64,000 bases of DNA from Psammoneis japonica (Eukaryota): NCBI GenBank assembly GCA_008632985.1, contig QPGO01000044.1:248001-312000 (forward strand). Reading direction: 5' to 3'. Under the pieces are notes generated by a model that saw nothing but the letters and a program-made list of their open reading frames with translations, had not been told where the DNA came from and made no database searches. Below are positions 9,101 to 56,461 of the stretch, in pieces. Each line of letters opens with the position of its first letter. Position 1 is the first letter of the stretch. The position numbers were made by a program, and so were the translations under genes.

Positions 9101-9457
9101 CACCAACATGTTCCATTTCTTGCACCGGCAGCCAGCAATTGGTGTTCTCATTTAGCTGGTTTTGATCAGAAGTGACACGGTGGAGGAGCAACTTGTGTCA
9201 AAGTGACAACATCAAAATGGATGGCAGGACAGACAGTGCACACATGCTTTTTACAAAGCCCGCAAACTCATTGATTTCCCGAAAAGTTGACATTCGAATG
9301 TGTGCAGGTGGACAGACTGATGACAATCATTTCTGGTCCTTTTCCACACATGTTCCATGCAATGTGACTCTGAGAGCCACAATGACTGTCATTGGAGAGA
9401 GCCACTGCAATGGGCACTGCTGTTTGTGACCTTGATTGCCTCAATCTTCCCACACAC

Positions 9458-10032: not shown

Positions 10033-10329
10033 CTGTCAACAGTGAAGTCTTTTTCTCATTTTGCCCTGCACTGCAATTGCAGTTGACAGAAAAACTTGAC
10101 AGAGACTGGGATTGTTCCCAGTTGACTGACAAAAACAGAGAAAAAGAGAGCTGCAAGCAAGAGCAGTGAACTGGGTTGTGTCATGGCATCAGCAAAGGAG
10201 TGAGACCATGTGATTGCTGAGATCAAGATTTGGCAATCTAATGGCAACAATTAGAGACAAAAGCAGGAGAACCCTTAGAAAGGACCATTGGGTGATTGCA
10301 TTTTTGATCCTGGACAATGAGTGAAGCAT

Positions 10330-13760: not shown

Positions 13761-14209
13761 GACAAAAAGTCTTTTTGGCTGAATCTTTTGTCAAATGCAA
13801 GTGTCACAAAAGAGCACCCCGGTCATTCACAATTTGTCCCTTCTACAAGACAACTCGTTGTTTCAGAGTGGACAATTTCAGACAAAGATTTGTGAATCTT
13901 AAACCACACAGTTTAGAATTCAAACAAATCTTAAACCACATGGTTCAAGATTTTGACATTTTCTTCAAGATTTTGCAATTTTTGATGACAACATGGCACA
14001 AGATTTAGACAACATGGCACGATTTTTGATGACATGGTTTGAGATTTTGACAATTTGGTTTAAGATTGACAAAGCTTTTGAGACAACAAATGACAATGGG
14101 GTCTTCGCCATTTGCAACAGGTCCCTCTGACTGTGCAAAGGGCTGGCCCCATGCAACATGCACTGGTTGTTCCCAATCCATTCCATTGAAAGAGTCGTTG
14201 TGTGCAAAC

Positions 14210-19220: not shown

Positions 19221-19789
19221 ATTGGCTGCATTGTCAATGCACAGATTATGAAAGTTTTTCAGGAAGTGCCACTGCAAAGTCTTTGGGGTGCGTGCAATGG
19301 GTCACGGGACTTTGAAAAAGTGGATGCATGGATTTCCAGCCCATCTGCCTAAAATGTGTTGCTGCCCCACTGTGCAGCATGCCTTCTGGTGCTTTTCCAA
19401 CAAGGAGCGTGCAAATTCAAAATCAACAGTGAAAATGGCACTTGTCTTGGCAGTGCTCATTTCAAAGATGATTGTCTTGATGCCACCAGCAACCCCTGTC
19501 CTGTGACTCATGTGCATGACTTGTGGTGCTGTGGTGAGAAAATTGTGTGTTTTGAGTTGCAGTTGTGTGTCTTGTGGTGCAGTGTTGTGTTTTGATGCTT
19601 TTTGGGTGTGTTGTTGCCTGACCTTGTCTCACTCATGGTTGTTCATTTTGTCTTGTGTTTGCCATTGATGTGCCACAAGTGAAATGGATCGAGCTGTGGA
19701 TTGTGGGGTCAACCCAGGTGACCAGTGCTGCTGATCAATCTGGGGTGCATGAGGAACCACTTCTTGTCATTGGCGCATGACAGCTGGAC

Positions 19790-20765
19790 TTGGAACTCAA
19801 CAAAAACACCTGGACTGGCTTACATGCAACAATGTTGGGCCATCATTGCGTGTTTGATTTGTTTGATCATCTGTCCTTGGAGTTGAGCATGATCAATCTT
19901 GTGCTCATCCTTGATGTTTGGTGTGTTTGTGCTGCTTTTACGTTGTTTGTTTGCAGTGGCTCTTCTTAGAACTAAAAAAAAAACACCTGGATTGGCTTTT
20001 GTGCAACAAGTTTGGACAACATTTGTGTGCTTGATCAATTTGGTCATGCACCCTTGGAGTTGAGCATGACAAATCTTGCACTCATCCTTGCTGTTGGGTG
20101 CATTGGCTCTGCTTTTGGGTTGTTTGTTTGCAATGGCTCTCATTCTTGGAACTGAAAAAAACACATGGTTTGGCTTTCATCTGATGAGTTTGGACAACAT
20201 CTCTTTGTGGTTTGTTCATTTGGTCATGCATCCTTGGAGTTGAGTGTGATCAATCTCACACTCATCCTTGCGGTTGGGTGCGTTGGTGCCACTTTTGCGT
20301 CATTTGCATGTGATGGCTCTTCTTGGAACACTCAACAAAAACACCTAGATTGGCTTTTGTTCAATGAGTTTGGATGGCATCTTTGTGGTTGATTCATTTG
20401 GGTGTGCATCCTTGGAGTTCAGCATGATCAATCTTGTGCTCGTCCTTGTTGTTGGGTGCACTGGGACCGCTTTGCATTGTTTTGCATTGTTTGCATGCAA
20501 TGGCTCTTCTTGGAACTCAACAAAAACACCTGGATTGGCTTCTGTGCAACAATTTTGGACTTTTGCAAGTTTGTTTGATCCATTTGGTTGTGCATCCTTG
20601 CAGTTGAGCGCAATTTATCTTGCCCTCATCCTCATTGTTGGGTGTGCTGGAAACACTTTTGTGTCCATTTTGTGGGGTGTTTCTCCCCAGAATGGCTTGT
20701 GTGCAACAATTTTGGACTCTCATTGTGTGTTTGGACCATTCAGTTGTGTGTCCTTAGAGTCGAGC
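19790..20765. repeat. Tandem array of about 5.5 units of ~178 bp
   Basis: The anchor ggaact...aaaacacctggattggctt recurs near 19793, 19968, 20148, 20325 and 20511; ccttggagttgagc...caatcttg..ctcatccttg occurs in each unit. Confidence 0.85.
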
Positions 20766-22479
20766 AAGAGTGCAAAACTTTGTTGGATGGTTTGAAAGCA
20801 GGACAAGACGTGGAGTTTTTCTGTGGCATGTGCCTTGCAATTGTGCTGCAGTCTGGTTTGTGTGCTTTTTAACATTGGCAAGGAATTGCTCAGCTCCACC
20901 ACATGGCAGCTCATTGCATGGTCAGGATGATGTTTCCACAAGCCACAATCTGGTGGAAATGACACAGTGGCTGCAACACAGTCCTTCTTGTCAGTTGTCA
21001 ATGGCATTCAATCTGGCTTGTTTCACAGCCTTTTTCCTCTGCACTGCCGACCGAGGACCAAAGTGCAAAAAAAAGTTGTGTTCTGGCTTCTTGCTGCACA
21101 CCACCAAGACCGCAAATTGCAGTGGCTCAAACACACATCTTGTCACAACAACCAAAAGCAACACTGGGGGCCCTGTTGCAGCTTTCTTTGTTGTTTTGCC
21201 CCTGTGATGTTGTCCCAGTGATGGTGTGTTCATGAATGGAGCCGTGATGCCATGGTGCACTTTCTTGCATTTTTTGTTGATTGCAAACAAGACAATTTCA
21301 AATCTTCTTGTTGACAAACAACAGATTCCACTCAATGTGTTGCACGTGTGTTTCCTGTTGGGTGTTCTGTCAGCCAACAATTGCCTTGTTTCAGATTTGG
21401 AGATAATTTCAGATTGTGACAAATCTTAAACCAACCAGTTTTTAAGATTTGCAAATCTTGAACTGTCCAGCATTGAGCATTCACAGTTTAAGAGTGGGAA
21501 ACGAGCACAATGTCCAAAAGACTGTTGTTTGGACATTGACTTGTTCTAGACTTAGGTGGCGCGCACATGCCCCTTTTCGCAGAAAAAATAATTTTTTAAT
21601 GCTTTATACAACACCGTACATATTTAATAAAATTGATCATACGAATGGCTTATAAGTAAAATAAACAGAATAAACTCGAACAAACAAACAGCCAAAACGG
21701 CCATGGCTTTCAGTGACCATGACGGCCCACTTTTTTCAGCCTTGTGGAAAATTGAATGCCATGACCAGGATCTCCGTATTTGATATAGTCTGTGTCATCA
21801 ACAACAATAGTGAAAATGCTTGTTGAAGGCTGCAGCGCGGCACAATAATGCTAAATCTGTCAGCAACAACAATTGAGCCTCTATTCACTCACAATTTGCC
21901 TCTAAGGACCATTTCTTTTCGATTACCATGTATATTTCCTCAATATATTCGACTGATTCAAGTGTATCAATCGTTTATGCCTTTTAAACCGTGAAAAATG
22001 GTCCGAAGTCGACGCCATTGCGTGGGCTGAGCTAGCCTACACTTCTTCTCACGTCGTCATAGACCTATTAATCAACGAATGCTTTATTCGATCCGTTGAG
22101 TGTAACTCGTATTCGCATATAAAAACAAAATATTAATTATGCTATGTTAAGGACTTAATTTATATATATTAATAATATTTTATATGTTTCTTGTTACATT
22201 AAGGCATATATAAATCGCTCATCGGAAAATTCGAGCTCTCAACTTACGGTACAATTTAGCGACTAATGATGAGTCCATCAACAGTTTCGAATACAGTACA
22301 TGGGTACACGCACAAGACAATTCTGTATGTACCCATAACAACACATTTGTAAATTGTTATGTTTTTACTGTCGAAAATGGTGCCGCAAGTGTGGACCGCG
22401 CGTTTCATGCAAAAAGGGTCATTTTTTCGCGCGTGAGTGCACCCAAGTCTGGAACAAGTCCATTTTTGAAGAAAGTTTC

Positions 22480-24620
22480 TCAAATGGCTTTGTCCATTGT
22501 TCAGTTCCGGTCATGCTCACAATTTTCAACGTGGCACAAATGTGTGAAATGACCAAATTCAGTCATTTTTGGCAATGTCCCTGTGGGCAATCTTGTTGGC
22601 AGGCAACAGTTCATGCATCAGTTTGACCACAGACACATGTTGTTTGGAAAAATGTTTGGCCAGGGTGGCATGGACGTTCCAGTCTGTCTGCAATGTGACA
22701 GTCTCATCCCACTCGTTTTGCTCCCACGTGCAGTTCACAAGAGCAAGGGCCATTGCTGCACATCACACAGAGGCTTCAAGGCCAGCAGCTGCCATTTCAT
22801 CTGAGAAAGAAAGGTGTGCTTGGCATTGCAACAAGGGCATGATGGCAGTTGCATCCTTGGAAATTTGCGCCTGGTAACAGCACGCCAATCTGTCAGCACA
22901 GATGTTGACTCTTGCACTTAGAGGCAGTGCTGCAACTGGGGATTGCTGGTCTTGATGTCCTTTGACCCACATTTTGTGGGAGGAACTTGGCCTTGTGAGG
23001 AGTCTTCCAACAGCTCTTGAATTTCCGTGGATGTGTCTGGAGCATCTCATTTGCCACACTCCAATCTGAAAAAGCACATTTCTTGCTCCATGGTGGCAAG
23101 TGCAGCAGTCTTTGTCCTGATTGTCTTGAACAATGGGGTCAATGGAAGGTCAAGAAGAGTGCAATCTCTAGAGAACTTTTGCCAAGGCCTTGTTGTCACA
23201 CCAGTTTTCCAGTCCGCGATGCTTGGAAATCCTGCAATGCTCAAAAACACAAAAAAGAAATCACAGAACCAACAGAACCACACATGCTTTTGCACAGCAT
23301 GAAGACGGTGACTGACCAAACACAGGACCTGCACAGTCCACTGACAGAGTGGCTGCCCTGTGATGCAATGGTCCACCCAAAGGCAGCTTGCCAATGAAGA
23401 ATGGATCTGTCACTGCCAGTGGTTGTGCTTCCTGCAATCAACAGGTCAATCAAGGAGTTGAGAGGCATGCAAAATGTCACATCCCAAAAGAGGGCTGATT
23501 CCCACTGAGGCAAAGCTTGCAAATGATCTTGGAGCAGGTCAGGAAAAGGCAACTGCCTTTCTGGAGCAAGGCCAGCATGGTGTGGAGTGAATTGCCACAA
23601 GCCAGTTTGAGCGGTGCACGGCAAGGCTTTTCTTCTTTGACATTGTTTGGCATGCTGACACTGCTGAGACAGGTGGGGTCACCACACATCTTGGATTGAT
23701 TGAGGTTCAAACAGCAGGCAAAAGTGATGTCAGACATGGTGGTGAGAACCTTGAGGGACATTTGGCAACAATTGATCTGTCAGATGTCTTGCACAGAGAG
23801 CTGATTGGCGTCCAGAGCAACATCCATCAAAAACTGGTTGTTGTTCCTCTGGAGGGAGAGAGCGCCATCATCTGACAAGTGAATCTTGCCATCCACATGA
23901 TTCAAGAACAACTGAATGGAGGCAAGCCACAAAGATTTGCAATGTGCATGAGGAGTGCTCATGTCTGACAGAAAGCCAGCACCTGCACCAAGTTAAAGCT
24001 GAATCCAGGAAATGGCAATGTGGACAGCTTTGCAGGGTTGATCATTGGTCAGAAGAGTTTGAGCACCTTCAGCATGCCGAAAAAGTTGTTGAATCTGTGT
24101 GACACCCTGCTCTGCATTGAACAACCTGAAGCCGCCGCCACCACCACCACCACCGAGTGATTGGGCCCAAAAATGCAAGTTGTTTTGTGTTGCGGTTGCA
24201 TCTGCACTTGTCAAAAATGGTGTGCATTGCACGTTGTTGGATCTTTGACAGCTGTTCCATCACAAAATGTGAGTTGGCTGGGACAAATGTGACAGACAGC
24301 AAGTGGTGTGCACGGCAATGCCGCCACAGTTTCACCCAATCTAGAGGAACTGACCAAATGAACAAGGCTTTCCCAAGGCTCTTAGCCTTCAGCACTTGGC
24401 ACTTGAAGCTGCTTTTCTTGAGAGCCAGCTGAGAAGATTTTGACACCCAAGTTGTCGTTGTGCGGGCACAAGCTGGGCTCTCCAAATTCCGAATGCTCCC
24501 ACTCAATGACGTGGACGAGCTCCAACTCGTGGCCACTGGCATGGAGCCCCTGGAGGCTGCAGAGACGCACGGAAGTCATTCACTTGTTTGGAGGTGTCAT
24601 CTTAGAGAGAGAGCACCGGT
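22480..24620 (-). mobile_element. Non-LTR retrotransposon fragment (RT thumb region and RNase H), degenerate
   Basis: GGGGFRLFNAEQGVTQIQ, QFLMDVAL, GSDRS...AAFGWTI, WVKGHQD...ARVNICADRLA (RNase H motifs). Confidence 0.75.
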
Positions 24621-34799: not shown

Positions 34800-36510
34800 A
34801 AAAATTTAAAAAAAAGAAACACGACTGAGGTGAGAGACACAACATACACATGACCGAACATCTTTATCTTTCTCGTGGATTTTGAAAAATCAGCTCGTCG
34901 ACCGTTGAAAGTTTGGTGCGTGCGTTGAGATGATTCACGGTTTTTGCTGGGGAAATGCGGATTGCGAGCAGCAGACTGCTGAGTGCACACTGCATGCCAG
35001 TGTGCGCCAGCAGGAGGTGGTTTTTGAAGCGTTGAGAAAGAAGACAAAATGGTTTGTTCGTGTCACATGGCTCACTGCACACCAGGGGCAGCTTCCAGGA
35101 AAGCACACGTGCTGCAGCGCAACATCACACAACTGTTTGTCTTTCATTCCACATGGTGTGTGTCATCACCAAAAAGGTTGCAAATGACAGAACATTGATT
35201 GTTCTTGAGCAGCGTGATGCTCTGCACAGCATTTGCTTCTCACCAGTCATCCTGAACAAATGCGGCGCACATCAAAACCTGACAACAACACAGTGGAGTT
35301 GTGAGGAGAGACTGGGGCAACAAGGTCACAGCCAGCAAAGCCCATTGCATCAGCTCTCCAACATCTAACACACTTCTTGATGCCACTGCTGTGCATTGAA
35401 AAAAGCAAGCATGAGATGCCTCGCTCTTCTTTTTTGCAGCATGAGAGGCAGAGCTTGTTTCACACTAGTGCTGCTGCACCCAATGTCATTTTTATTGTCA
35501 TGCAAAAGCAGATTCAAGCATGTTTAATTGTGAGTTTCCATTGTTGCACAGTGCATGTGCATGGTTGGCATGCATCTGGAATGTGGCCATTGCAGTGGCA
35601 AGTTTCAGTCCAGTCGCACACCTTTCAGCCCTGGGAATGGCCCAAAAAAAGTCTTGTCTGCATCTGAGAGGGTTTTGGAATGGAGAGCATTGGGTGTCCT
35701 CATGTCAAGGCTGTGTGCCAAAGCCCACCTGACAAAATGCCATTGTGTCAATCCCGCTGCCATTCAATCGGGTGTCATCTCAAGGCCCAGCAGCTGACAA
35801 TGCCATGTTGTGCCAGCCACCCCGCTGCCATGTAAACTGCACATTTGAGCACCTCACTTGCCTTGTGGGACAACACCTTTGCTTGCCTTCATTTGTGAAC
35901 ACACCAAATCATGGATGTGTGTTGACCCACGCGCGGCTCTTCCTCAAGACTTGGGCCAACAGAGCTCTGCACACAAGCTCGGCTCAGTTCACACATGCTC
36001 AGCAATGAAACACAACATTTGTCTTCAACATCCGAACAAATGACCAAGTTTGCAGCACAGTTTTGCACACCTCTTGGCTCTCAAGGTTTTTGAAAAATAA
36101 AAAAATGCTGCCAGCAACCAAAGCTTGTTGAGTGGACAGAGCCTGACAACAACTGCAGGCCACCACAAAACAGTGCAAAATGCCACCAAAGTCATGAAGA
36201 AATGCACATGCACAGCAAGTGGTGCACGACAAAAAAGTCAACATCACAGCCCAGCAGCATGAGAGGCCCCACCCGCACACAGAGCAGCAGCACATCAGAG
36301 CATGTGTTGTCAGCTGCCACCACCTTGGTTGACTGCACTCTTGCTTTGAGGCTTCAGATGTTGGATGCAAGCATGCACAATTGAGCTCACAATGATCGCT
36401 GCAAAAGAGACAAAAGTAAAAAAAATGGTGTCAACAGTTCTGTTGCAGCGCATCACATTTTGGACAAAGAGTGTGATTTGGGACGGACCACTCGAAAAGT
36501 TTTGAAAAAA
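34800..36510 (-). mobile_element. Degenerate repeat block, possibly a hAT transposase remnant
   Basis: TpA-depleted block. The minus strand near 35510-35550 reads ..NSQLNMLESAF, resembling the hAT TRWNSxxxML motif. No TIRs established. Confidence 0.35.
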
Positions 36511-36635
36511 TGAAAGCTACACAATGATGTATTTTGCACATCTTTACGGCAAGTGCTAAATAGGCTTCACTCCTCCCATGCAACCCTAGCACTAGGTAGA
36601 CAAGAACATTCCCCTATGCATTCCCTTTGTTTCGA

Positions 36636-42049: not shown

Positions 42050-43450
42050 CATGCTAATCTGCTGTCAATGTGACTGGAGTTTTTAAGCCGCCGCCCTCTT
42101 GCCCTCTTTCTCAATCTTGTTCATCATCGTTTGCAGTTTTTTCCAATGCCGAAACAACAGCTCCCACTTTGTTTTCCAATTTGGATTTTCCATCAATAAC
42201 CTTCCTCTCCTCACTTGTGCTAGCTTTGAAGCTGCGAGTTGATGCTGCCTTCTTTTCATCAACCAGCTTGTTGCACAAGGGCACGGCTTTGTTGTGCTGC
42301 TCAACCAAATTAAAAACATGCTTGAGAGACACGGATTTCAATGTCTTGCAAGCCCTGTCCCACCAAGCCATGTAGTTGTCATCATCCTTTGCTTGAGGAC
42401 GATTGCTGCCATTGAGACACTCCTTCTCCTCACTTGTAAACAGCGCACGCGGGCCCTTGCTTTTAGAGATTTGTTGAGTTCGTCATGCTCGGATTTTTTG
42501 TAAAGTGCTCCATGCCCCAACTTCTTCTTGAGCACCATGTGCACACCAGAATCATGTTGTGCCTGCGACTTGGGCTTCCAATGAGTCCCCTTGCGAGCAC
42601 CTTCGCGTTCAATCTTGTGCTCCATTGAGAAAGCACAGAATTGCCTCATCAATTTGCTGCAGTTCGGCACAGTGAGAGTTTCTCCACGCAGATGCTTTCG
42701 TTCCAACTGATGGACCAGTGGATGTCCTTTTTTTTGGCAAAAACGTCAAATGCTGCGACCGCCGTCTTGTAGCCATCTTCGGTTCGGTCTGCTTTGTCTT
42801 GCATTTCTGCGCATGCTTGGAGCATCATGGACTCGTCTTCGCACTCTTCTGCCTCATCCTCATTTGAATCTTCCAAAAGGAGGCCTCAAGCTCAGTGGCA
42901 AGTCGATTGACGCGGTCCACCTCACTCGCTTTTGCCTCGTCGCTCGGCTCGTCGCTGGACTTGTCCTTCTTGCATGGATTGTTGTGATGCGAGCAGAAGA
43001 TTGTGCCTGCTGCAGTGGTTGCTGGTGGTTCCAACTTCCAACCTGTCCTGGGCCTGTGCAGCTGGAGCATCTTTTTCATTGATGAGAGATGGCATTGTGG
43101 ACAAATGATGCCGACAGCGTATGCCATGCAAGTCCAATCGCAACGAATCGCAACAATCGCAATGAAAATGGTAGACTTTAGCTGGCTGGAGGCCATGGTG
43201 CAACAGCAGCAACGAGCGAGCGGCGGCAGTGCGGTGGTCGGACCATCTGTCGTCCGTCGCAGGGTGACCGGTCTGGTCGGCGGCTCAACCCGTCGATTTC
43301 CGGCCGATTTGCGAGGGACCCGAGGGACACCCTGTCCCTCGGGGGCGCGCTTCGCGCGTCCCTCCCGCTCCGCGGGACAAATGTCCCTCCAGGGACACTC
43401 CGCGTCCCTCCAAAAAAAATTTTCGCAAAAAACATGTGTTGCCATCATGG
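42050..43450 (-). mobile_element. Degenerate coding remnant in a repeat block, family uncertain (possibly Crypton-like tyrosine recombinase N-terminus)
   Basis: Frameshifted pieces TEDGYKTAVAAFDVFAK, LMRQFCAF...SQAQHDSG..LKKK; GC-rich gggaca/tgtccc palindromes at 43315-43410. Confidence 0.25.
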
Positions 43451-44094
43451 CCATTATGAGTTAGCCAGGGTGGGGCTAGTTGGTCACGCACGTTTGGGTT
43501 CGATGTGACTGTGCAACTAGCCATGCCCTGGAGGAAAAGCTGTTGGTGGATTGGGTGGCGCGCGAGTGCCGGCAGCAACGCAACAAAGCAAAAAAACACG
43601 GCGTGGGTCAAAAAACATTGTAAAATGACATGACAACAAGCGATGAGAAGAAACCCAACTTGACCCAGGAATGAAGCACACAAATGTTGTCCAGCGGCTT
43701 TGATCTTGTCTGGAAATGCACTCTCGTAGATCCGCGAACGGCACTCACGTTGCTTGCCATGGTGTTGTCATGTGTTGTCGTGTGCTGTTGTTGTGCGAGA
43801 AGGACGGGGCACCAGGGCCAACTAATTGCAAAGTTTTCTGCGGCAATCAGATTGCAGTCAGTCGATTGCATCGCTGTGGAACAGCAACCATCCAACTGCG
43901 GTCGCGCAGCGATTGCACGGTCTGACAAACAGACTGCAATCGGGCTGCAATCACCCTGCCGGCCAGGCGTGCCCCCTGCACAGGGGCGCTCTCTGCACAA
44001 GAGCACACTCCGCGCAGGAGAAAAGCCCACCGCAGGCAAAGAAATCAAGCTGTTTTGCTTGTTTTGGCGACGCGCTCCAGGTCCAGGTGGGACC

Positions 44095-44366
44095 TGACAG
44101 AAATTGAAGGCAAATGGCAAGAATTCAAACAATGACTCCTTGCTGCTGTCTAAACAGCAGATGAGTCTCCGCTCAGAGACCGTTGCAGGAGCCGAAAGAC
44201 GTGCAAGTCGGTGCAATCGGGCTGCTGTTGTCATTCTTGTGAGCCTTGTGGCTCGAAAGCAAACTGCATCGCGCGCGAACGCGCGGAACTAAAGCACACA
44301 AAACTGTGCACGGCAAACTAAACAGCGCGATTTCGCGCGCACCTGAATCCTGTTCAAATCCTGTCA
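44095..44366 (-). repeat. 3' LTR of the Copia element (272 bp)
   Basis: Matches 48781-49056 apart from four substitution sites and one 4-bp length difference. Confidence 0.96.
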
Positions 44367-44419
44367 CTCCCCAGTTTGCTTGAGGAGCCACAGAAACAGG
44401 TTCGACTTTGGATGGAATG

Positions 44420-47400
44420 AAGTTCCAGAACATGAGGGGGCGGAGAAGGTCCCAGACTTGGGAGTGACCCCAATGCTTGCTGAGAAAGTCAGCAGGGTTG
44501 CGGGAGCCTTCGATGAAGTGGAGCTCAAGGTGACCAGAGGCAATTGCCTCACGCACACGGTGGAACGACAGTGCGGTGTGTCACTTGTGTGACTTGGAGT
44601 GCGGGATGGTGGCACTGTCTACAACCGACTTGTTGTCACCGAACATGCAACTGACATTGCGGATCGGGATGCCAAGGTGGCGCAGGGTGATGCACAGGTC
44701 GACAATCTGCTCGACACAAGTCCTTGCGGCAACAAATTCAGACCCGCAGGTCGCAGTCTCCACGGTGGCTTGCTTCTTGGAGAACCAATCAGCCGGGAAT
44801 TTGTTGAGGAAGTGGAGCATTCCCATGATGGAGCATCCGGTGAGCATGCAATGGCACAAGTTTGCATCGACGCAGTGGGTGGCAGTGACGAACTTGCCAA
44901 GGGGCGGTGGAGCATCCTTCGGGATCATCTCCTCTGCTTCGCTGTGCATGGAATGCATCCATTCACAGGCCGGAGCAGGGAGATCCGAGTGGTCGGGCTC
45001 TTCCGTGCGAACGCAGAGAGCGCCATGTCGCATCTTGGAGAGGTGCCCACAGATGCGTTTGGCACGATCCAAGTGGCCTTGACGGGGCGCAGCTCGGAAG
45101 CTAGAGAGTGACATGACGGCCGTGGTGATGTCAATTCGACCAAGGGACACTGCCCATTGGAGTGAACCAACAAGAGACTGGAACTTGTGAATGCCATCGG
45201 GCCCCAGCAGTTCGGAAGTGTCCAGTTCGGGGTGGTCACCCTTCTCCAGAGGTGACAGGGCGTTGGTGGCAGGTTTCTCCCCAAACAGTCGGGTGCAGCT
45301 GTCGACCATGCGCTCGATGCACTTGCGCGGAGACAGGCACAAGGTGCCATCGGGATCCCGGGAAAAGTCGCAGCCCAGATGGAACTCAATGGGTCCCGCA
45401 CCCTTGAGCTTGAACTTGCACTTTTCCGCGAGAGTGTCGACGAAAGATTGAGGGTCCTTCACAGCAATGGCGAGGTCATCCACGCCGTTCCTGCGCATCC
45501 AAATGTCAGGTTCGGTGCGGCAGGGGAAGAAGCCTTCAGCTCGTGGGCAGTCGGCAAAGCGCTCGTGCCAGCGGAGACCGGAGCTGCGCAGTCCATGCAG
45601 GGCCTTGTGGATGACAAGGATGTGTCCTTCGAGTTTGCCAAATTCGGGTCCGGCTACAATGTAGAGCTTCTCCTTGGTGGTGGCTTCAAGGTGGGCATTG
45701 CCAATGTTGGTGGCCCATGTCTCCAACTCGTTGAGTTCGGCCAGGAAAATCATCAGCCGAAGGCCACGGAGGGAGACTGCTCCGGAGTAGACACCATCGA
45801 TGGGTACGTCCGTGAGGTGCCCATCGGCTGCGAGTCGTGCCTTGTGGCGACCGTCGTGTTTCATGTCGCACACCAGGTGCACTTGGATCTTCTTGTGTCC
45901 TGCAGGAGGAGTGGAAGACTCGAAGGGCCCGCAGTCATGGAAGACTTCGTATTCTTCGAGTTGGTCCATCTCGAGATTAGTTGCGTCTCCCCATTTGCAG
46001 TTGCCCTTGCGTTCGTCTAGTGACATGGCATGTTTGCAGTTCCGGGGAACTTTGCATCCGCACTTGCAGCGAGGTGCAGTGCAGAAGGAGCGAAGCTTGG
46101 CTTGGTTGGCCATGCGGAACAGCTTCTTCTGGTGCCTTGCGATGGTGCGGAACTGCTTCCAGCCATCAGTGTCGAGAAGTCCGTTCTCTCGTGCATAGAT
46201 GGCACAGGTGGCGGGGTCGTCCTTGGCGATGATGGCAAGAGGCTCGGACGTGATCTCCCCACTTTCCCATTCAAGCATGATGTTGTAGCTTGAGCTTTTC
46301 CAGGTTGGGTCATGAGGCTTCAGAGGTCCTTCGTGTGACACAATGCGTCGAAATTTCCAAACAGCAGTGTCTTCGTCTTCTTGCTCAATGTGATTCATGA
46401 TGTCGTTGCAGGCAAGGACTTCCTTGCATTGACCATTGTTGACAGAGCAGACGAACTCAGTGAGCTCGGGATTGCCGTTCACTTTCCATTCATGGTCTTC
46501 GACGGCCTTGACGATGCGAGCTCTGTGGCGTTGTCCATCCTCTTGTGGCTGCATGAGGAAGGTGCGTCCGATGATGTCTTGCGGATCGAAAACTGGCATC
46601 TTGGGTGTCCTGATCTCCCCATCAGGAGAATCGACGGGGTTGTCATCATGGTGAGATTTGATGATGGGTTCAGGTGGCTCCCCATCAGGAGGATCAAGAC
46701 GCAGGTTTTGAACGGCAGGATCGGTGGTGGCGGATCATACGTTGGACCAGCAGAGGATCTTCTGAGTCTCGTCAGAGAGAATCTTGAAGGTCATCTGGTG
46801 GCCGACGTGCTCAGCAATGCCAACAAAGCGTCCACGCAACTCACGGGATTTGGACAGCCAATCGGAGTCATCGAGGTGGAAGTGCACGGGTTCCCACCAG
46901 TGAAAGCGAAGCAATGGGCTGATGTCCGGGGTGGAGCCAGTGAGAGTCTCGAGGGGTGTGCGCCAGTGGAGACGTGGGGACGCTGCATGGTTGAGCATGA
47001 AGCACACGCACATGAGCGCCAGCAGCCATGTGTGGGCAGGCGAACCGAAATGATCCATGACAGTGTTCGCCATGCACTTCACGGTCTGGTGTCGACGCTC
47101 GGCAAAGTTTTGGTGTTGCTGGTGAGGCTCACTTTGCCAGCTGGAGATGAAGAGGGCTCGCAGGATCCCGAGCACCTTGTTGCTGATCTCAACTTGAGCA
47201 CGGTCGCTGATGAGTTTGGATGGGGCACCACACTCACGGATCTGATCCTCGAGTGTGTTGACAAACTCTTTGTCCGTTTTGGTGCCGCAGACGTCAGTGA
47301 CGGCAGACTCGGTGCCAACAAACAGTTGGGCGCTGGTGCAACCAGAGTCGACGGCCGGGGTGTCGGCACAAACGGTGTCAGTGGCGATGGGCTCGTTGCG

Positions 47401-48780
47401 GCGGTGCACATTAAGGGCGGGGTTGGGCGATTTGCAGGCCTTCCTGAGGTGTGCACCGGTGGGCATGCGGGCGCACTGCGTGGTGCAGTCAAAAGTACGA
47501 TGGACCGCATCGGCAGGGAGGAAGCCAAAGCAAGGCCAAAGAGACTCGAAGGGGGGGTCCTTGGGCTGCACAGTGTGCTCCGGGGGCGGAACGTCGTCGT
47601 CCTTGGGGTCAATCGCGTGTAGATGACACTCGTAGAACACATCGTCGTTCGGAATGAGGTGATCATCGAGGGCGGACGCGTGATCGGCAGACAAGGAAGC
47701 GGACATGATGGTCTTGTTGACAACGACACGATGACAGCAGTTGCCGCATTCGTCAAATGGGTTGGCAGTGGGATCGTCCTGCAGGTCAGAGATCGCGTCG
47801 CACCACTGGTCGTCGTCAGTGACAGAGTGATCAAGGACGGAAGGATCCCATGTGTCATCACCGGTGAGGATGACATGGGGCAGGGTGTCCCATTCGGCGT
47901 CAGTGCAAGGTCGCATGGCAACATGAGGCAGGCCGCCCTTGATGTCAATGGGGATGACACAGCCATCAGGGGTGGCAATGCGTTGCAAGCCGTTGGGCAC
48001 CTTGACAGAGCGATCGTTGACATCCTGTTTGCACCATTCGAGCTGGCCGCAGGAATGAATGGTCTTGCCCTTTCCCGCATGTGTGCACTGATGGAGGATG
48101 GCGATGACGGGACCACGCTGGGTCTCAATGATGGCACCAGTGGTGACAATGGGGATGTCCACCAATTGATGGTCGTCAATGCCCTGAACGTCGACTTGGC
48201 AAGAGGTGCGTGCAATGACGCGAACGTCATCGCCAGCAATGCCGCCGTTGGCCCCACGATCGACTGGAGCACCAGCGCGTGTGGAGCGATGAGCAGAGGC
48301 AGAGTGAATGACATTGTGGTTGTCAACGCGGCGGTGAGTGCGGCCGTCAAGTTCTGTGTCATCGGCAGGAGCTGGCGAGGTAGAGGGAGCGGCGGATGGC
48401 CCTGGTCGACTGGCGTTGGGGGCTTGGTTAGGAGACAACAGACGTTGCAGATCACCGGGTGGCAGTGGCTTGCGCTTGGTGAGGTGCTCCAGGATGGGAT
48501 TGTCCAAAGTGGCATCCACATTTGGAGCGGGGTCACCAGAGTCAGCAGGAGTCTTGTTGGACAAGTTGACATCACCGTCACTCCCAAGGCGTTGGTCGTG
48601 AAGGTTGGCCGCAACGGACTCATGGCAGTTGCTGGCTCGCGGGTTGCGGGGAGGCGGACGAGAATGCTCGAGGATGATCGCCTTGGAGGAATGGGGCAAC
48701 GAATCCCAAATCCGTTGGTGGTCGGGAGGGAGACGTTTCCATTGGTCACCAGTGAGGCTGGGACCACGGGTGCAGGCATC
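44420..48780 (-). pseudogene. Copia gag-end/pol polyprotein, inactivated
   Basis: ORFs 46735-48699 and 44581-46599 plus the RNase H tail. TGA stops lie at positions normally Arg (SNV*SA, HK*HTALS). The segment before the RT YVDD motif is missing (WMRRNG-VDDLAI). Confidence 0.92.
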
Positions 48781-49056
48781 TGACAGAAATTGAAGGCAAA
48801 TGGCAAGAATTCAAACAACAACTCCTTGCTGCTGTCTAAACAGCAGATGAGTCTCCGCTCAGAGACCGTTGCAGGAGCCGAAAGACGTGCAAGTCGGTGC
48901 AATCGGGCTGCTGTTGTCATTCTTGTGAGCCTTGTGGCTCGAAAGCAAACCACATCGCGCGCGAACGCGCGGAACTGAAGCACACAAAACTGTGCACGGT
49001 AAACTAAACAGCGCGCGACATTTCGCGCGCACCTGAATCCTGTTCAAATCCTGTCA
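48781..49056 (-). repeat. 5' LTR of the Copia element (276 bp)
   Basis: Direct repeat of 44095-44366. Confidence 0.96.
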
Positions 49057-50066
49057 GGACCTTGCACTGCTGAACTGTGACATCGACAGTTTTTTGAATT
49101 GAGTTGTGTGTCGCGCACGCACATTTCTACGTGATTTTGGCAAAATTTTGCATCATTTTACAGTGCAATTGTCGGGCGATCCACTCAACAACTTTTAATG
49201 TTTTTTTCTTCTGCGCCATTCTCGAGTGTCTCAAGAATGGCACAGGGCAGGCACGTTGTCCAAAACTTTGAGTGCAAACAGAGACACATGTGCCACAAAC
49301 TTGGCCATGTGTTTTGTGTTGAAGACAAATGTGTCCATTGACCAGAGTGCGAACTGCAGAGCTCGCACGTGGAATTCCACGGGGCAAATGTCACAAAAAG
49401 TCCCACCTGGGGCTGGAACCCGTCTGGCCACAAAAAGAGCTCGAATTTCAATTGCGACGTGTTCCAGCCGCACGTGAACCAAATCGTGCACTAAAACGAC
49501 ATTTGCGCGATTTTTGCGCGGTCCCTAACTTACGATCGAACTTTCACCACCAAAAGTATAGATTTATACAAATATAAATGTTCTGCAACACTAACAAGAC
49601 TCGTGTGAGTATTGCAATATCATTGTTATTGTGCTGTCTATGTTTTTCATTGCGTTAAAAGATTCGTAACACACGGATGATTTTCGGCGAAAATATTGCC
49701 GTTATTTGGATGTTAACTAAATATATCTTTCTACGATGCTACTTGGTAGGTTTTCTACCTACAAAAAAATCTCAGTATAAATCTACTGACGTACAATCAG
49801 TATTGAGTCTACTGAGGAAGTTTATGATACATATCCCATGAGGATTTGAATACCCCTCAAAAAACTATATAAATGTCCATACTCTAGAAGCTTATAAAAG
49901 TCAATCCGTCTAAGTATTTTTATTTTAAAATGCTATATACACTAAAATATACATAAATTACATTCAAAATCCGATTGTCGTTTTGTGCGTCACCTGGGAC
50001 TGGAACACGTCTTGCAATCAATTGCAACAGTTGATTGTGATTGCGACCTTGGCTCTTTCCCGACAA

Positions 50067-52375
50067 TCAGGTCATGACGGGTTCCAGTCCTGGGCGGGAC
50101 TTTTTGTGACATTGGGCTCGTAGAATTCTGCGTGTGAGCTCCGCAGCAAAATTGTCAAGCAATGGACATGTGGATGATCGCCAACAGAAAAAGAGGCAAT
50201 TTTGCGAACGCATCTCCTCCTCCACACTTGAAGCACACATCAAAGAATGCAGCCAGTGCATTTTTGTTGTCATGAGTGCAGACAACAGAAAGCCTTTGGC
50301 TTCGCAAAACAGGCAGTGTGGAACAAATTTTTGTGACAGAACACACAGAAATGTGTGCCAAAACATGCGACAGATGACAAAAAATGATTGTGTCACAGTT
50401 CAGTGGTGCAAGGTCCCACCCAGAGCTGGAACGCGTCTCATTGCAATCAAGTTTGCAACAGCGATTGCAGTCAAAGTGAGGCTGATTGCAGCCGATCCCA
50501 GCAATTGGCCAACACTGCGGGGCGCTGTTTTGCCAACAGCCACTCTGTTTTGGCAATGGTGGATGTTCAGCTGTGTGCAATCTGGGAACAATTTGAGAAG
50601 CGCTTCGCGACAACCCTGTTCAGACCGTCAAACAGAAATTTTTTTGTTCAGATTCTAAAATGTGTTTCGGGGTGTTTCTCACTTTTTTGAATTTGGGTGT
50701 GTGTCTTTGCAAGACCTTGGAAATGTCAATGACATGCAAAACCCTGAGAGACCAACATGAATTCATCTTTCATGTGGACCACATGCATTGTGCACCGGCA
50801 GAAAATCCACCGCATGTCAGCTCACTCAGCAGCAATTCCATGTGTGTTTTACTTGCATCTCACACACGCACACACGCCTGCACAGTCCAATGACCACGCA
50901 CACGTGCATGAGATGATGTGTCAATGGGAATCATCCGGGTCCTGAGAGTCATCACGTAGAAATTGTGTGGGAGAGCACTAAAAATGATTGTTGTCAGTCT
51001 GTCCATCTGTCCATGTGCGAATGTCAACTTGTCGGGAAATCAACTGAAATGCTGTCTGATTGACAGCATTTTGATTCACACAGTGAAGGCCAATGCTGTC
51101 AGTCAGACGGCATTTCAATTCAGTTCCCGAAAAGTTGTTAGCTCCAATCACTCTCTCGCATGACATTGTGTGCATTTCCACACGATTTTGTGTTTTTCCT
51201 TGTGCAAAAGATCAATTGTGACCCACGCGACATTTTCAAATGATTCCCATTGACTCGAATCACATTTTGTTGAAACGCCACCTTTGCTCAAACACGTCAT
51301 GTTTGAGAAAACGGGCTCAATGTTTGAGGAATTGCTCGAACTTTGCGCAACTTTGAGCACTTGCTCAAACTTGCTGCTCAAACTTGGCAAGTTTGAGCAA
51401 ACACTCAAACTTGCACAAAGCTTGAGCAAATGCTCAAACATGTGAAATTGATGCCACCGGTGCTGCACCAGTGTGAAACCGCTGTGCAGCACTGGCCTGC
51501 CACACCGCACATGCTGTGCGCACTGCGACTGCTGCTTTCACTGCATGCAGGTGTCAGCACAAATCAAGTGCAATGGAAATGAGGTGTCAGCCGTCAGTGA
51601 CAAACAACAAAATCACAACCATCACACCATGGTGACACAAAAGATGATTTTTCTCTACGACAACACCTTCAAGAAACCCAACATTCCATTGAAAGACATG
51701 TGATGCAAACTCATGCACGAAAATGTTGAAAGTTCCAGCAGAACAGGCTTGTTGAGGGGGCTGCGGGGACCAACAAGGAACAGTGTCACGCAACAACATT
51801 TTGTCTTTTGTTTCAATCAAAAACATTTTTCAAAGCATGCCTTGGCATTGACATGTGCTAAAATGTCAACATTCACTGCAAATTGCCAAAGCGCCTTCGA
51901 TCGCTCCAAAGAGGAAATTTTCCATTCATTGCCAGTTTGTGCCAGGCTGCATGGAAAAGTGCAGCCGACATGCTCCAGCTCCAGGTGGGACCTTGCACCA
52001 CTGAGCTGTGACACAATTGCTTTTTGTCATCCGTTGCATGTTTCGCGTGCACATTTCTGCTTGTTTTGTTGTGAAAAATTGTTCCACACTGCCTGCTTTT
52101 GTGAAGCCAAAGGCTTTCTGTCATCTGCGTTCTGCATTTGTGACAACAAAAATGCACTGGGTGTGTTCTTCAACGACTGAAAAGAACATGCCCGGACATG
52201 CTGTGAAGAATGTGCTTCAAGTGTGGAGGAGGAGATGCATTCGCAAAATTGCCTCTTTTTCTGTTGGTGATCATTGATGTGTTCATTGCTTTGTGATTTT
52301 ACTGCGGAGCTCGCTCGCAGAATTCTGCGGGCCCAATGTCACAAAAAGTCCCGCCTGGGACCACAACCTGTCAGC
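50067..52375. mobile_element. Non-autonomous element with ~400-bp inverted terminal repeats; a third copy of the same repeat (44065-44094 + 49057-49430) is the Copia target
   Basis: 50067-50450 is the reverse complement of about 51960-52375 (gggcgggactttttgtgacattgggc vs gcccaatgtcacaaaaagtcccgcc). Confidence 0.75.
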
Positions 52376-52399
52376 CATCACATTTTCTCCCTCCAACAA

Positions 52400-55300
52400 T
52401 CAACTGCATGCACAAACAAACAAGGAGCAAAGTGCAATGACAGGCAATGGCAATGCAACGATGTCATCATGATGCAAGCAGGGAGGAGACGCAAGCGTCC
52501 AGTGGCAAGAACAGCGGTGCGAGCAACCCAACATCCAACATTTGGGCAAGGCCATGCTTGCGGCCATGGCTTTTGCATTGCGGCCGTGGCCGCCATGGAC
52601 TCGGGGCAGAATCAGCCCTTGTCATTTGGTGGCCACAGCAAAGGTGAGAGCATCCAAGCAATGGGACAATTTTTGGTTGAATGCATCAACGACGAGAGCT
52701 TGGCCATCTTCGTTGATTCGAACGACAAGGAAATTGTCGTGCAAAAGTGCTCTGAGGGTGTGATGATGCGTTCATGCTCACGCTCTGTTGCCGCTGTTTC
52801 CAATTTTCTGTTGGAGTGGAGTGCACAAGAAACCAAAGTCAGTTTTTTTTCTGCTCTAGATCTCTGTCAGTGCTGCACTCTCTGCCAGCAGCAGCAATTG
52901 TGGTCAAGCAATTCAGCCCACTTGTCAGTTTGTTCTGCTCCAGATGTGTCAGCACTGCACTCTCTGTCAGCAATTGCAGTCAAGCAACCACACTTTGAGC
53001 CACAGCACTCAGTGTCTCTAAAGCAATGTGATCCACCCCCTTGCAGATCATGCCCAGAAACAGTTCACTCAACAACAGACCCATCCGAAGTTGCACCAGG
53101 ATTCATCCGCAGAGCACTGGAAATCAGGATCTCAGATTTTACCGGGTCGTCAAGAAGCACAGATGGATGATGCCCGGCTCTCACTTCATTGGCTTCACTG
53201 ACATCGGCAAATGGGTGAGCATTGGTGTCAACCACTCCAAGCATTTCTCCAGCTCCAATCACCCAGAGACCTGTCAATGAGGCACTCATGCATTTTCATC
53301 TCTGGGCTTCTGTGAGGGCGAGAAGGGGTGACCAGATCCAGCGGGTCTTGGCTTGAACCACCAGCAGGAGGACAATGGAGAAAGCTGCCCTCATGAGGAC
53401 ATGGATGAATGGCCTGCCACAGTTCCTCAGATTTGGATGGTCCACGGGCTGCAGCAGGAAATGATGCACCAGCTGTGGCACCTCTGTGATCAGTTGCAAC
53501 CTGCTGGACGGTGGGCGGAACAGCGTTGGCAGCCCCACCACCCCGTTGTGGTGCAGCCACCCCATCAAAGGGGTTCACCACATTGCTGGGTCCAATCTCA
53601 AATGACGCTTGAGGCAATCCAAACTTGTCCTGCTTGTGACACCCAAACTGGGATTCGCGCCATTGATGGCATTCATGTGACCAAGCATGCGTGCCATCTT
53701 GGTCGCCAGCACAGAGAATGGCTTTCAACAAGACACAACAAAAGACATGAGTTAAGAGAAGCAGAAAAGAGCACTGCAAAAGCACAACACTGCGTGTGAT
53801 TGCTTGCTTTTGTTGCTGCATCGCATCCACAGTGGCAAACTGGACAGAGGCAGTCTCCATTCTCGTCCAAGCCGTGACGTTCTCCAGTGGCATCATCAAT
53901 GCATTTGAGCAGGCATTCTGCAACAGGAACTTCTCCAGTGATCAATGGCCATTTCCATTTGGCTCATCAACAGTGGAATGGCCACAGTGGTGACAATTGC
54001 GGTTCACCTCGTCCTCCGGTGTCGATCCTTCAAACAGAAGCTCTTTGGCCATCAGAGACACCACCTTGGCCTGTTCTTCATGCAATGCTGTGTGGTGAGC
54101 TGCAGTTTTCTTTGATGACACAAGATCCTTCACTTCAGCAGTGGCCTTTGTCACTGGGTGTGCATGCCCGGGCATGAGTGGTGCGCAGCTCTTTCTTCCA
54201 CACGCAATCAAGTTGGCACACCATTCAATTCCAGCAACATGCTGTTGCAGTGGGAACAGCTCCAAAGATGGTCTTGTTTAGAGATGCAACAAACAAAGGA
54301 GTGCATTTCCAGTGTGCTTCAATGATGGGAGCATTCTCCATGCCAATCCTCTTCTCGACTTCCGCTTTGTTTGCAATGAAAATCACGGTGAGCTTCTTCT
54401 TTTCTGCCACCATGCCACAGCTCGGTTTCCTCAGCTCGTCAAGCATTTTGTTCTTGGAAGGTCCTTCCACATCACAATGCTTGACATCACATCATGTTTC
54501 GGTGTTTGACTCGCATGCATGGACGCAGTTGTGCATGGCGTTTGTGGCCATGGTCGATCTGCTGTTGCGGCATGTTTTGTTTTGCCCAAGTTTTGCCAGT
54601 CAAGCAGCGCGCAGGAAGATTGTGTGTCTTTCTACGTGGCCTGGTGCAAACAAGCTGATGAAAGGAAATTTTCCTCTTCAGGGCAATCAAAGACACTTTG
54701 CGCACGAAAAGTGACAAGTGTTTGGCAATTTGCAGTGTTGTTCCAAGTCAAAAACATGTCAAATGGATCATCAGCAAGTGCCGGCATTAGACCATCTTCA
54801 TGTTGTCGTCACAGCCCCGTGCGTCATCGTGCCAACATGGATTTTTTGTTTTTTGCACATGTTTGAGCAATTGCTCAAACTTTCATGACCGTTGAATGTT
54901 GCTCAGTGTGGCATCCATTGTGATTGCGCGCACGTGCGTTTGAGCAGTTTTCCCACATGGTGCTGGTGGGTTCTTGTGTCGACCATCAACGCACGCATGA
55001 GCATGAATCATCATCTGCTCTGCCGCTCTTGTTTGACCAGCTGGTTGGTTGTTGACCCCAACCACCACCAGTGGAACAAGATGAGACCAATGTCAGAGAT
55101 CTTCATTTCAAGAACAGCACATCACATTGTTCAAAAACTTTCATTGTGCAAATGCCACATTTTGGGCATGTCCAAGGAACAAAACCAGCACAAACTCGAG
55201 CATGCTTCTTGCATGTGTGCGCTCAACACACCCTGCCCAGAAAATGTCAGGGAGTCGTCTCTCCCATCTGTTGTGCCACTCATCACATCAATTGTGGAAA

Positions 55301-56425
55301 CCCAGTGTGCTGCCACTCCCTCCAAAAGTTTGCACCTTGTGTCTTGTGCTGCTCTGATTTTTTTCAAACAACTGCTGTTGACACCATTTTGAGATTGTTT
55401 GAGTCATGCTTTGTCAGACCCACATGATGTGCTGCAAGCAACCTCAGCTCTCTGCTCAACTGCCACAAAACTTCTGTGCACAGCCAATGATGTGTTCAAT
55501 CTTGCAGACCAGGATCTGCTTGAGGTGGGATTGTCAAGTGCCAGCCGTCATGCAAGTGCCAGCTCTCTCATGCTGTCAAGCTGGCTCATGACCACACCAC
55601 TTCCTTCTGCTTGTCAAACAAGATTGTTTTCCACTGTGGCTGACTGAACTTGACCTTGTTGCTGTCTTCATCACAAGTGTCTCTTGACAAAAATGCCAGC
55701 CATGATGTGCTCCTTTGTCATGCTCACAAAAGAGTGCCACCCTGTGCAACAGAAGCTTTTGCAAGGCTGTCAAAAGTTGCACACAACAATCTTGACACCA
55801 CATGGCACAACTCTGCTGCAAGATCTTGTGGCATTGCAGCAGCAGCAGTTTTGCAATGAACTGCTTCATCCAACTGAGTGTTGCTCCTGCTTCACTCTCA
55901 AGCTGTTTTCACTTTCAAGAAGAAATCAGTGGAGCAGCCAACATCTTTTCTGTGCAGTCATTTCTCTTCTGGCATTTGAACATGCAAGTGCACTTGCACT
56001 TTTGTGCAATTCAGGGCTGCTGTGGAACCTGCTCAGCAGCAAAAGAAAAAAAAGGCGTGCGGCCGTGGGGGCTTCTTTTGTTGAGACACAAATGGGTTTT
56101 GCATCAGCAGCAGGGGGGCTGTGTGGGATGTGAGCACAGTGCTGTGCAATGCATGGTCATGGGTGGGCCCAGTTGTTGTTGTGAGAAATAATCCCATCAC
56201 CATGACATGGAAGCACGCTGAAATTTGAGAGACATTTGCAACAGAAAAAAGACACTGGAAACAAAAAGGACGGAGCGTTCTTGGATCTGGTGGAAGATCA
56301 ACACAAGTGACAAAAGAAAAAACTTGGAAGACTGCTCAAAATGCAAAAGGATGCTAGAGACAAAAAAGAAGAACATCCAGCAGTTAAATGAAGCCACAAA
56401 GGAATCAACAATTTTCTGCTGTGCA
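52400..56425. other. Unidentified TpA-depleted block, probably decayed mobile or viral-like coding DNA
   Basis: Same dinucleotide signature as the identified TEs; protein-like fragments but no motif I can assign. Confidence 0.4.
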
Positions 56426-56461
56426 AGTAGAGCCCTCGCATTATTATTGTTGTTGTTTTTA

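Follow-up and report, generated by a model that had tools for sequence, protein, structure and literature searches.

What kind of process can strip a recently inserted retrotransposon of nearly all its tyrosine codons? This question is raised by a 64,000-nucleotide stretch of the Psammoneis japonica assembly GCA_008632985.1 (contig QPGO01000044.1, positions 248,001 to 312,000 of the forward strand; hereafter the window), in which positions 44420..48780 form the interior of a Ty1/Copia long terminal repeat (LTR) retrotransposon lying on the minus strand. Our analysis shows that the element, once integrated, underwent transition hypermutation at TpA (TA) dinucleotides, probably through a process of the host that targets silenced or repeated DNA. 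The element is organized as follows, with positions given in window coordinates and ORF denoting an open reading frame.

49057..49061, minus strand: upstream copy of the target-site duplication (TSD) GGTCC, 5 bp, intact
48781..49056, minus strand: 5' LTR, 276 nt, with TG...CA termini (TGACAG...CTGTCA)
46735..48810, minus strand: ORF1, gag-protease-integrase part of the polyprotein, 691 aa from stop to stop, 1 Tyr
44581..46734, minus strand: ORF2, reverse transcriptase (RT) and RNase H, 717 aa, 5 Tyr, Pfam RVT_2
44173..44580, minus strand: continuation of the polyprotein C-terminus (KHWGHSQVW), 135 aa, frame kept, extending into the 3' LTR
44095..44366, minus strand: 3' LTR, 272 nt, with TGACAG...CTGTCA termini
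44090..44094, minus strand: downstream copy of the TSD GGTCC, 5 bp, intact

ORF2 (672 aa counted from the first Met) matches the Pfam family RVT_2 (PF07727; E = 6e-15, 55.9 bits against a cutoff of 31.6). ORF1 (654 aa when read from Leu38) gave no Pfam match at E <= 0.01, and its integrase was recognized solely via alignment to long homologs. More specifically, the read-through of the element was aligned to the long homologs (43 proteins of 1,000 aa or more, covering the integrase too), and this alignment placed an integrase-core-like region (KLISDRAQVEIS...HQQHQN.AERR) in ORF1, upstream of the RT. The RVT_2-type RT, the integrase upstream of it, the direct LTRs with TG...CA ends and the short TSD are the features of Ty1/Copia, and the element is a recently inserted member of that group in a diatom nuclear genome. 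The protein database holds 1,179 homologs at E <= 0.001; the best 120 of these share 53-65% identity, all 120 carry PF07727, and nearly all are metagenomic, with the closest relatives of this copy (55-65% identity) coming from aquatic metagenomes. The diatom Copia elements of the CoDi groups (PMC2806351) share the RVT_2 RT, the integrase upstream of the RT, the TG..CA LTRs and the 5-bp TSD, but the copy described here is dead, with its tyrosines erased, nine residues deleted before VDD, and two TGA stops. Its guanine-plus-cytosine (GC) content is 57%, versus 46% for the window.

A recount of the tyrosines returned the numbers given in the initial annotation of this stretch (one in ORF1 and five in ORF2), and the 135-aa tail has none. 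Measured against the 120 homologs, tyrosine makes up 0.7% of ORF2 (homolog mean 4.3%, minimum 2.3%), and cysteine makes up 4.2% (homolog mean 1.2%, maximum 2.5%). Those homologs define 23 columns with at least 80% Tyr, 17 of which align to a residue of the element (3 Tyr, 7 Cys, 5 His, 1 Trp, and 1 Phe), while the remaining 6 are gaps in it, 3 of them within the 9-aa deletion that lies immediately before VDD in ORF2. With the 43 long homologs, 19 Tyr columns were obtained at the same threshold, and here the element has 3 Tyr, 6 Cys, 7 His, 2 Phe, and 1 Trp. Across all 476 columns conserved in at least 80% of the long homologs, 413 residues are retained, and the losses fall disproportionately on tyrosine (3/19 retained, versus 410/457 for other residues; Fisher p = 1e-12). 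Since every Tyr codon is TAY, TpA transitions turn Tyr into Cys or His.

The proposal that conserved Tyr codons had become Cys or His was originally made from seven Copia motifs. Six of them agree with the homolog consensus (KALYGL, TATYGSEF, LRYLG, SYMFGDN, WGY, and LHK, the last with TCA in place of a Leu codon), whereas at the site read as VHLVCD the consensus residue is Phe (VFD) and not Tyr. Intact relatives with Cys or His at the same positions would speak against erasure; we looked for them among the 120 proteins and 80 related Copia RT regions from metagenome contigs and found none, barring two partly erased copies. These are the database protein P0071, with Cys or His at 9/21 conserved Tyr positions, and the metagenome contig L067 (match 762-2759), with Cys or His at 8/18 covered positions and an observed-to-expected ratio (O/E) for TA of 0.32. 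L067 is the only one of the 80 regions with at least 3 such replacements, a count to be read in light of the fact that a Tyr was part of one of the two search patterns, which leaves erased copies under-sampled. Given these two partly Tyr-erased copies, the process occurs in at least one other environmental genome.

For the 63 changed columns among the 476, we inferred the single nucleotide change that leads from the consensus residue to the codon of the element, in its actual context. This yielded 10 TA>TG, 11 TA>CA, 8 CG>TG, 13 CG>CA, and 3 other transitions, in addition to 12 transversions and 6 multi-step changes; the 45 single-step transitions are therefore made up of 21 at TA, 21 at CG, and 3 elsewhere. 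As a null, 24 related RT regions were taken and the 19 without an in-frame stop were used. TA- and CG-type changes account for 19.1% of the possible non-synonymous transitions in these intact relatives, compared with the 42 of 45 observed (binomial p = 5e-27), and the TA class alone reaches 21 of 45 against 9.7% expected (p = 2e-10). Besides Tyr>Cys/His, the TA class comprises Val>Ala (GTA>GCA), Leu>Pro, Leu>Ser, Ile>Met, Ile>Val, and Ser>Gly. Both strands are affected equally (10 TA>TG versus 11 TA>CA on the coding strand), and Cys and His outcomes follow each other at random along the element, without clustering (8 runs versus 7.5 expected). The CpG component, with its 21 changes at conserved columns, is an addition to what had been recognized before.

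It had also been argued that TA>TG/CA cannot convert a sense codon into a stop, so that such elements die by missense while their frames stay open. The codon logic is correct, and the loss of TAA and TAG, which occur at 4-9 per kb in the TA-depleted blocks of the window (listed below), and at ~8 per kb around the element, versus 36-41 per kb in genic DNA, accounts for the long ORFs found in all six frames around the element. However, the frames are not fully open, as a second process (CpG>TpG/CpA) made two in-frame stops. Both are CGA>TGA changes at a conserved Arg (read-through codons 692 and 1410); they terminate ORF1 and ORF2, where the homologs carry Arg, and they stem from the CpG process rather than from TA loss. 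The older blocks are likewise TGA-rich. Spurious ORFs in 42700-49100 include 47079-49043 on the minus strand (654 aa, out of frame) and, on the plus strand, 46339-47622 (427 aa) and 47623-48783 (386 aa).

The LTR pair shows when the changes took place. Its two members differ by one 4-nt indel and by four substitution sites, all four TA-derived (CA versus TG twice, TA versus CA once, and TG versus TA once), with no difference at 20-21 CpGs and none at any other site (~250 other positions, CpGs included). CA-versus-TG doublets would be the expected product of independent hits on a single ancestral TA. Since LTRs are identical at insertion and these now carry such doublets, the process acted on integrated DNA and on each LTR separately. 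In addition, the restriction of the changes to TA sites, with none at CpGs or elsewhere, indicates that the TA process is much faster than CpG decay or background substitution. The element as a whole retains 24 TA in 4,962 bp, versus ~43 per kb in genic DNA.

Further copies were found in public sequencing data. Three runs contain the stretch (X1, X2, and X3), and their contigs were compared with the window over 40001-60000 at 85% likeness. X2 leaves the Copia interior uncovered and X3 extends over the repeat alone, and neither was counted as evidence. Word depth is ~50-68 in unique DNA and sums to 67,000-148,000 over the Copia interior, which indicates a high-copy family. The places at which X1 differs from the window comprise 151 A>G, 160 T>C, 170 G>A, and 130 C>T, along with 114 transversions. 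Among the 40 best-supported of 746 X1 differences, 16 are TA elsewhere and TG or CA in the window, 6 rows represent three TG<>CA doublets, and 7 are CG elsewhere and TG or CA in the window. Some contigs also contain the joint 44064>49427, which corresponds to other copies of the surrounding repeat without the Copia element. Collectively, the direction first proposed, a loss of TA, holds on three counts: relatives have Tyr, copies from the same organism have TA where this copy has TG or CA, and the LTRs differ solely at TA-derived sites.

Which TAs are lost depends on the flanking bases. We compared tetranucleotide counts, both strands included, between the depleted blocks and genic DNA, with R and Y denoting purine and pyrimidine. 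RTAY falls from 24.7 per kb in genic DNA to 0.3 per kb in the blocks, YTAY/RTAR from 22.5 to 1.6 per kb, and YTAR from 16.1 to 5.9 per kb, corresponding to losses of ~99%, ~93%, and ~63%, respectively. Survival ratios of single contexts range from 0 for ATAT, 0.01 for ATAG, 0.02 for both ATAC and GTAC, and 0.03 for ATAA, through 0.11 for CTAC, 0.12 for GTAA, and 0.14 for CTAG, to 0.42 for CTAA and 0.50 for TTAA. Six TAs survive in the LTRs, five of them in TTAG and one in TTAC.

The phenomenon was initially tied to the element itself. The element is indeed affected, but so is every repeat block in the window, as listed here together with the one further retroelement remnant that could be recognized.

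4270..21400, no strand: TA- and CG-depleted block, TA O/E 0.00-0.16, CG O/E 0.04-0.45
22367..24602, no strand: TA- and CG-depleted block
34866..36517, no strand: TA- and CG-depleted block
42100..49491, no strand: TA-depleted block with the Copia element and the older repeat hosting it, TA O/E 0.04-0.3, CG O/E ~0.8
49960..56354, no strand: TA-depleted, partly CG-depleted block, CG O/E 0.04-0.8
16965-18771, plus strand: degenerate Ty3/Gypsy-like RT-integrase remnant, with sub-threshold, collinear Pfam matches to RVT_1, Integrase_H2C2, and rve

The five blocks together contain 155 TA in 33,305 bp, compared with 1,168 TA in 27,203 bp of genic DNA. Most 500-bp bins of the blocks have 0-4 TA, with O/E mostly 0.00-0.16 and up to ~0.3 in a few bins, versus 12-49 TA per 500 bp and O/E 0.4-1.0 in genic DNA. 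Conversely, TG+CA O/E is ~1.9 in blocks where CG has also been lost and 1.3-1.7 in the Copia block. The borders are mostly sharp (~100-500 bp), with the left edge of the 42.1-49.5 kb block being gradual. Apart from two islands of normal TA content, taken up below, the blocks coincide with repeated or transposon-derived sequence and the neighboring genes are spared; the right part of the 49960..56354 block (52.7-56 kb) is single-copy at 85% likeness in X1. CG O/E is mostly 0.04-0.3 in three of the older blocks, and because CG is kept (~0.8) in the block with the young Copia element but lost in the older ones, TA loss precedes CG loss.

When Pfam was applied to 136 six-frame ORFs of the other blocks, sub-threshold matches arose at 16965-18771 alone, and the rest stayed unclassified. 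For the Gypsy-like integrase-core fragment (18181-18771), 136 of 150 representative homologs were used (BLASTP match of at least 100 query residues). Ten of its 41 conserved columns are changed, namely 5 of TA type, 3 of CG type, 1 other transition, and 1 transversion. Two minor features of the first block are a tandem array of 177-186-nt units at 19789-20644 (4.8 copies, 74-76% identity) and a lone N at 7901, in the middle of the block.

Taken together, the element inserted and its integrated DNA then underwent near-saturating TpA transitions on either strand, giving TpG and CpA in about equal number, with a slower CpG>TpG/CpA decay acting alongside. TAY codons thereby passed from Tyr to Cys or His, NTA codons gave Leu>Ser/Pro, Val>Ala, and Ile>Thr/Met, and TAs spanning codon boundaries gave Ile>Val, Ser>Gly, and Lys>Glu. 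Every repeat block of the window has been subject to this process, which spared the genes between them. As for the chemistry, the most likely candidate is deamination by an enzyme that acts on adenine within 5'-TA on both DNA strands (A>I, read as G).

A passive, modification-driven decay could leave a similar footprint, although we consider it rather unlikely. According to this explanation, a symmetric TpA mark in silent chromatin, either 5-hydroxymethyluracil (5hmU) or 5-formyluracil placed by a TET/JBP-type enzyme or N6-methyladenine (6mA), mispairs or deaminates at a raised rate, much as 5-methylcytosine (5mC) erodes CpG, and TA loss is a by-product of silencing. The shared blocks and sharp borders of TA and CpG loss would fit such a mark, as would the equal effect on both strands and the fact that TpA, like CpG, is palindromic and could bear a maintained symmetric modification. 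In dinoflagellates, thymine is preferentially replaced by 5hmU at TpA, and 5-formyluracil is mutagenic (T>C). However, no TpA-linked modification of this kind is known to us from diatoms, and the rate does not fit: ~85-90% of the TA in the young Copia element is gone, while no change is seen at the 20-21 CpGs of its LTRs or elsewhere in them. TA loss of this extent with LTR CpGs untouched points to a rate that greatly exceeds 5mC-type decay and that looks enzymatic or like a burst.

It is very improbable that the signature was created by sequencing or base calling, that is, by miscalling of modified repeat DNA (6mA or 5hmU at TpA and 5mC at CpG) in a long-read assembly. Modified bases do give transition-type consensus errors in nanopore assemblies, and comparison of the window with X1 contigs shows scattered indels like those of a long-read assembly. 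Against this, the depleted single-copy stretches listed here are found again in X1 contigs whose k-mer depth is that of unique DNA (~50-68).

52332-53137: X1 match with 2 other letters in 809 nt; 2 TA versus ~35 expected
53822-54372: X1 match with 7 other letters in 550 nt; 1 TA versus ~24 expected
54787-56325: X1 contig of 1,543 nt at depth ~60, with 13 other letters; 2 TA versus ~66 expected

Moreover, X1 copies have TA at the same sites, so TA is readable in such a context; the Copia block has lost TA but retained CG (O/E 0.8); and partial Tyr>Cys/His erasure recurs in the independent metagenome contig L067 and in the database protein P0071.

RNA-level A-to-I editing of a transcript or double-stranded RNA by an ADAR-like enzyme, fixed through reverse transcription, is less probable still. 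ADAR-type enzymes prefer a 5' U and would give UA>UG, as cited in the discussion of a preprint by Mettrop et al. (bioRxiv 10.64898/2026.01.13.699255, April 2026). Such editing is confined to the transcribed strand and precedes integration, and we rejected it on the grounds that both strands are changed (10 TG versus 11 CA on the coding strand) and that the LTRs, as their doublets show, diverged from one another after insertion. The signature also extends to the flanking older repeats and to blocks without a recognizable retroelement, with sharp borders that bear no relation to transcripts. Finally, TA before G or A survives best, which is the opposite of the 3' preference of ADAR.

The equally improbable reading that the scarcity of TA and Tyr reflects the composition or codon usage of this lineage of Copia elements, or results from GC-biased gene conversion, would suit the GC-richness of the element but was rejected, since the 80 related RT regions keep their tyrosines (TA O/E 0.32-1.17, versus 0.11 in the element), the substitutions strike residues conserved in at least 80% of homologs, and the changes are dinucleotide-specific (3 other transitions versus 42). 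Many of those 80 regions show CpG decay but no TA loss.

Several observations nevertheless weigh against post-integration TpA hypermutation of repeats as we have formulated it. Two AT-rich islands (GC 33-38%) with normal TA lie within the depleted blocks, at 21547-22366 and 49492-49959. Either not every repeated sequence is affected, or the islands are younger or too short. They may have been inserted after the mutational episode, or they may be too short for targeting. Some X1 contigs contain the joint 49395>49991 (595 nt), showing that some copies of the surrounding repeat are without the second island, and the omission of 49492-49959 marks that island as an insertion; the bin that holds it and its flanks has a high summed depth in X1. 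The first island is bordered by inverted repeats (~21530-21565 and 22425-22470), the right arm of which shows TA>CA/TG relative to the left. The persistence of TA-normal islands among the blocks argues that the process does not simply spread over its neighborhood. The choice of base pair is a further difficulty. A hand tally of direct cases found the pair proximal to the favorable flank hit 8 times and the distal pair 7 times, and the bulk gains (YTGY +24.6/kb versus YCAY +11.8/kb) are confounded by CpG decay and would favor the proximal pair only where that decay does not depend on the flank. Moreover, the three runs represent one sample of one study and are possibly the assembly's own source, so the check on artefacts is not fully independent, and the inspected X1 differences were restricted to the best-supported ones. 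Finally, that the host process is directed at silenced or repeated DNA, and thus amounts to a directed defense, is something that we infer.

A recurring motif of ~20 nt, (G)TCCCACCTGG.(C)TGGAAC or its complement, is present at 49400-49430, 49990-50015, 50078-50100, and 44075-44094, and thus borders both the island 49492-49959 and the Copia insertion site. It resembles the T-arm and acceptor end of a tRNA; ARAGORN and Rfam scans of the window returned no tRNA and no RNA family.

For post-integration hypermutation at TpA we found one close precedent, in the chlorarachniophyte Bigelowiella natans. In mutation-accumulation lines of this alga, Mettrop et al. (bioRxiv 10.64898/2026.01.13.699255) counted 302 single-nucleotide mutations in the nuclear genome, 231 of which fell in an integrated nucleocytoplasmic large DNA virus (NCLDV) and a virophage. 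Nearly all of the mutations in viral DNA were A>G or T>C, and every one of this type lay at TpA, with a rate of ~6e-7 per site per generation, ~1000-fold above background. TpA-poor, CpA+TpG-rich clusters of that genome were enriched for reverse transcriptase and DDE domains, and the authors of the preprint propose DNA adenine deamination by an ADAT2-like enzyme. Judging from the likeness, the process in the diatom is probably of the same kind, as both show TpA>TpG/CpA on both strands, confinement to foreign or repeat DNA, and local borders. The two systems differ in host (Rhizaria versus Stramenopila), in target (giant-virus inserts versus LTR retrotransposons and unclassified repeats), and in extent (TA O/E of 0.45 in the NCLDV region of B. 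natans, versus near-saturated values of 0.03-0.1 here). The blocks described here also display a coupled CpG decay and a visible flank rule in which YTAR is spared, and whereas de novo events were observed in B. natans, the diatom process is read from the sequence. A term search of the preprint found no mention of flanking context or of diatoms. We regard the present case, which concerns retrotransposons of a diatom, as a further example of this very recently described TpA>TpG/CpA hypermutation of repeat or foreign DNA, and it adds evidence on post-integration timing, on speed relative to CpG decay, and on a tetranucleotide rule.

Better-known systems also allow comparison. Repeat-induced point mutation (RIP) of ascomycete fungi is the functional analogue, as there too repeats are hypermutated by transitions at a specific dinucleotide, which kills transposons and produces blocks of altered composition with sharp edges. 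However, RIP acts as C>T mainly at CpA, which raises TpA, lowers GC, and creates many stops, whereas the diatom process removes TpA, increases GC, and cannot turn sense codons into stops. A contrast with RIP had been drawn at the outset, and the composition of the blocks (TpA O/E 0.03-0.1, TG+CA O/E ~1.4-2.0) does have the opposite polarity. Deamination of 5mC matches the CG>TG/CA changes in the same blocks, 21 of them at conserved Copia columns and including both stops, but it cannot explain TA loss and is much slower here, with 0 of 20-21 LTR CpGs changed. APOBEC3 (G>A) and ADAR (A>G) also inactivate retroelements by clustered transitions with a neighbor-base preference, but they act on cDNA or RNA during replication and on one strand, unlike the post-integration changes on both strands seen here.

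In the literature covered, which left subscription journals and bioRxiv supplements outside its scope, we found nothing on TpA or TA hypermutation in diatoms besides the Bigelowiella preprint. A term search of the CoDi paper (Maumus et al. 2009, PMC2806351) returned no hypermutation, RIP, dinucleotides, or deamination. The chlorarachniophyte preprint of 2026, on giant-virus DNA, is thus the single earlier report of repeat-directed A:T>G:C hypermutation that we found, and its occurrence in a diatom suggests that the process is not a curiosity of one alga. We tentatively propose that diatoms, or at least this lineage, possess a defense that is RIP-like but of opposite polarity, in which a nuclear DNA mutator recognizes silenced or repeated DNA and converts its TpA to TpG/CpA on both strands, acts best at RTAY, largely spares YTAR, outpaces 5mC decay, and disables elements by missense without stops. 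If this is true, TpA hypermutation would, together with the case of Bigelowiella, represent a widespread defense of the SAR (Stramenopila, Alveolata, and Rhizaria) clade and a natural source of sequence-context-specific DNA adenine (or thymine) editing enzymes. The signature itself, TA O/E below 0.1 with TG+CA O/E of 1.3 to ~2, Tyr>Cys/His replacement, and six-frame open reading, provides a sequence-only diagnostic and points to an enzyme that edits A:T pairs of duplex DNA in a defined context. It also carries a warning for annotation, as such blocks yield long spurious ORFs, which gene callers would report, and mutated 'proteins' in metagenome catalogues (e.g., P0071 and L067).

Outside the blocks, the window is eukaryotic and gene-dense, with long ORFs that are mostly without introns. 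An ORF for an amino-acid transporter (28942-30957, minus strand, 672 aa) has named relatives exclusively in diatoms, including Attheya, Dactyliosolen, Stephanocyclus, Thalassiosira, Nitzschia, and Seminavis, with a best match of 59% identity. This identifies the host as a diatom for which the protein database contains no closely related sequenced species. The transporter gene has a partial tandem duplicate (27405-28486 versus 28931-30091, 77% identity over 1.16 kb), and its upstream copy is represented by a 204-aa fragment ORF (27955-28569, minus strand).

In a fibrillarin-like gene (57751-58801, plus strand), the X2 contigs omit 107 nt (57718-57826) and 87 nt (58135-58223) with GT..AG ends. 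These two gaps are probably introns, and because stretches with such ends are omitted, X2 probably represents RNA. Elsewhere in genic DNA, a 380-nt unit is present twice at 1310-2059, with 96% identity between its copies.

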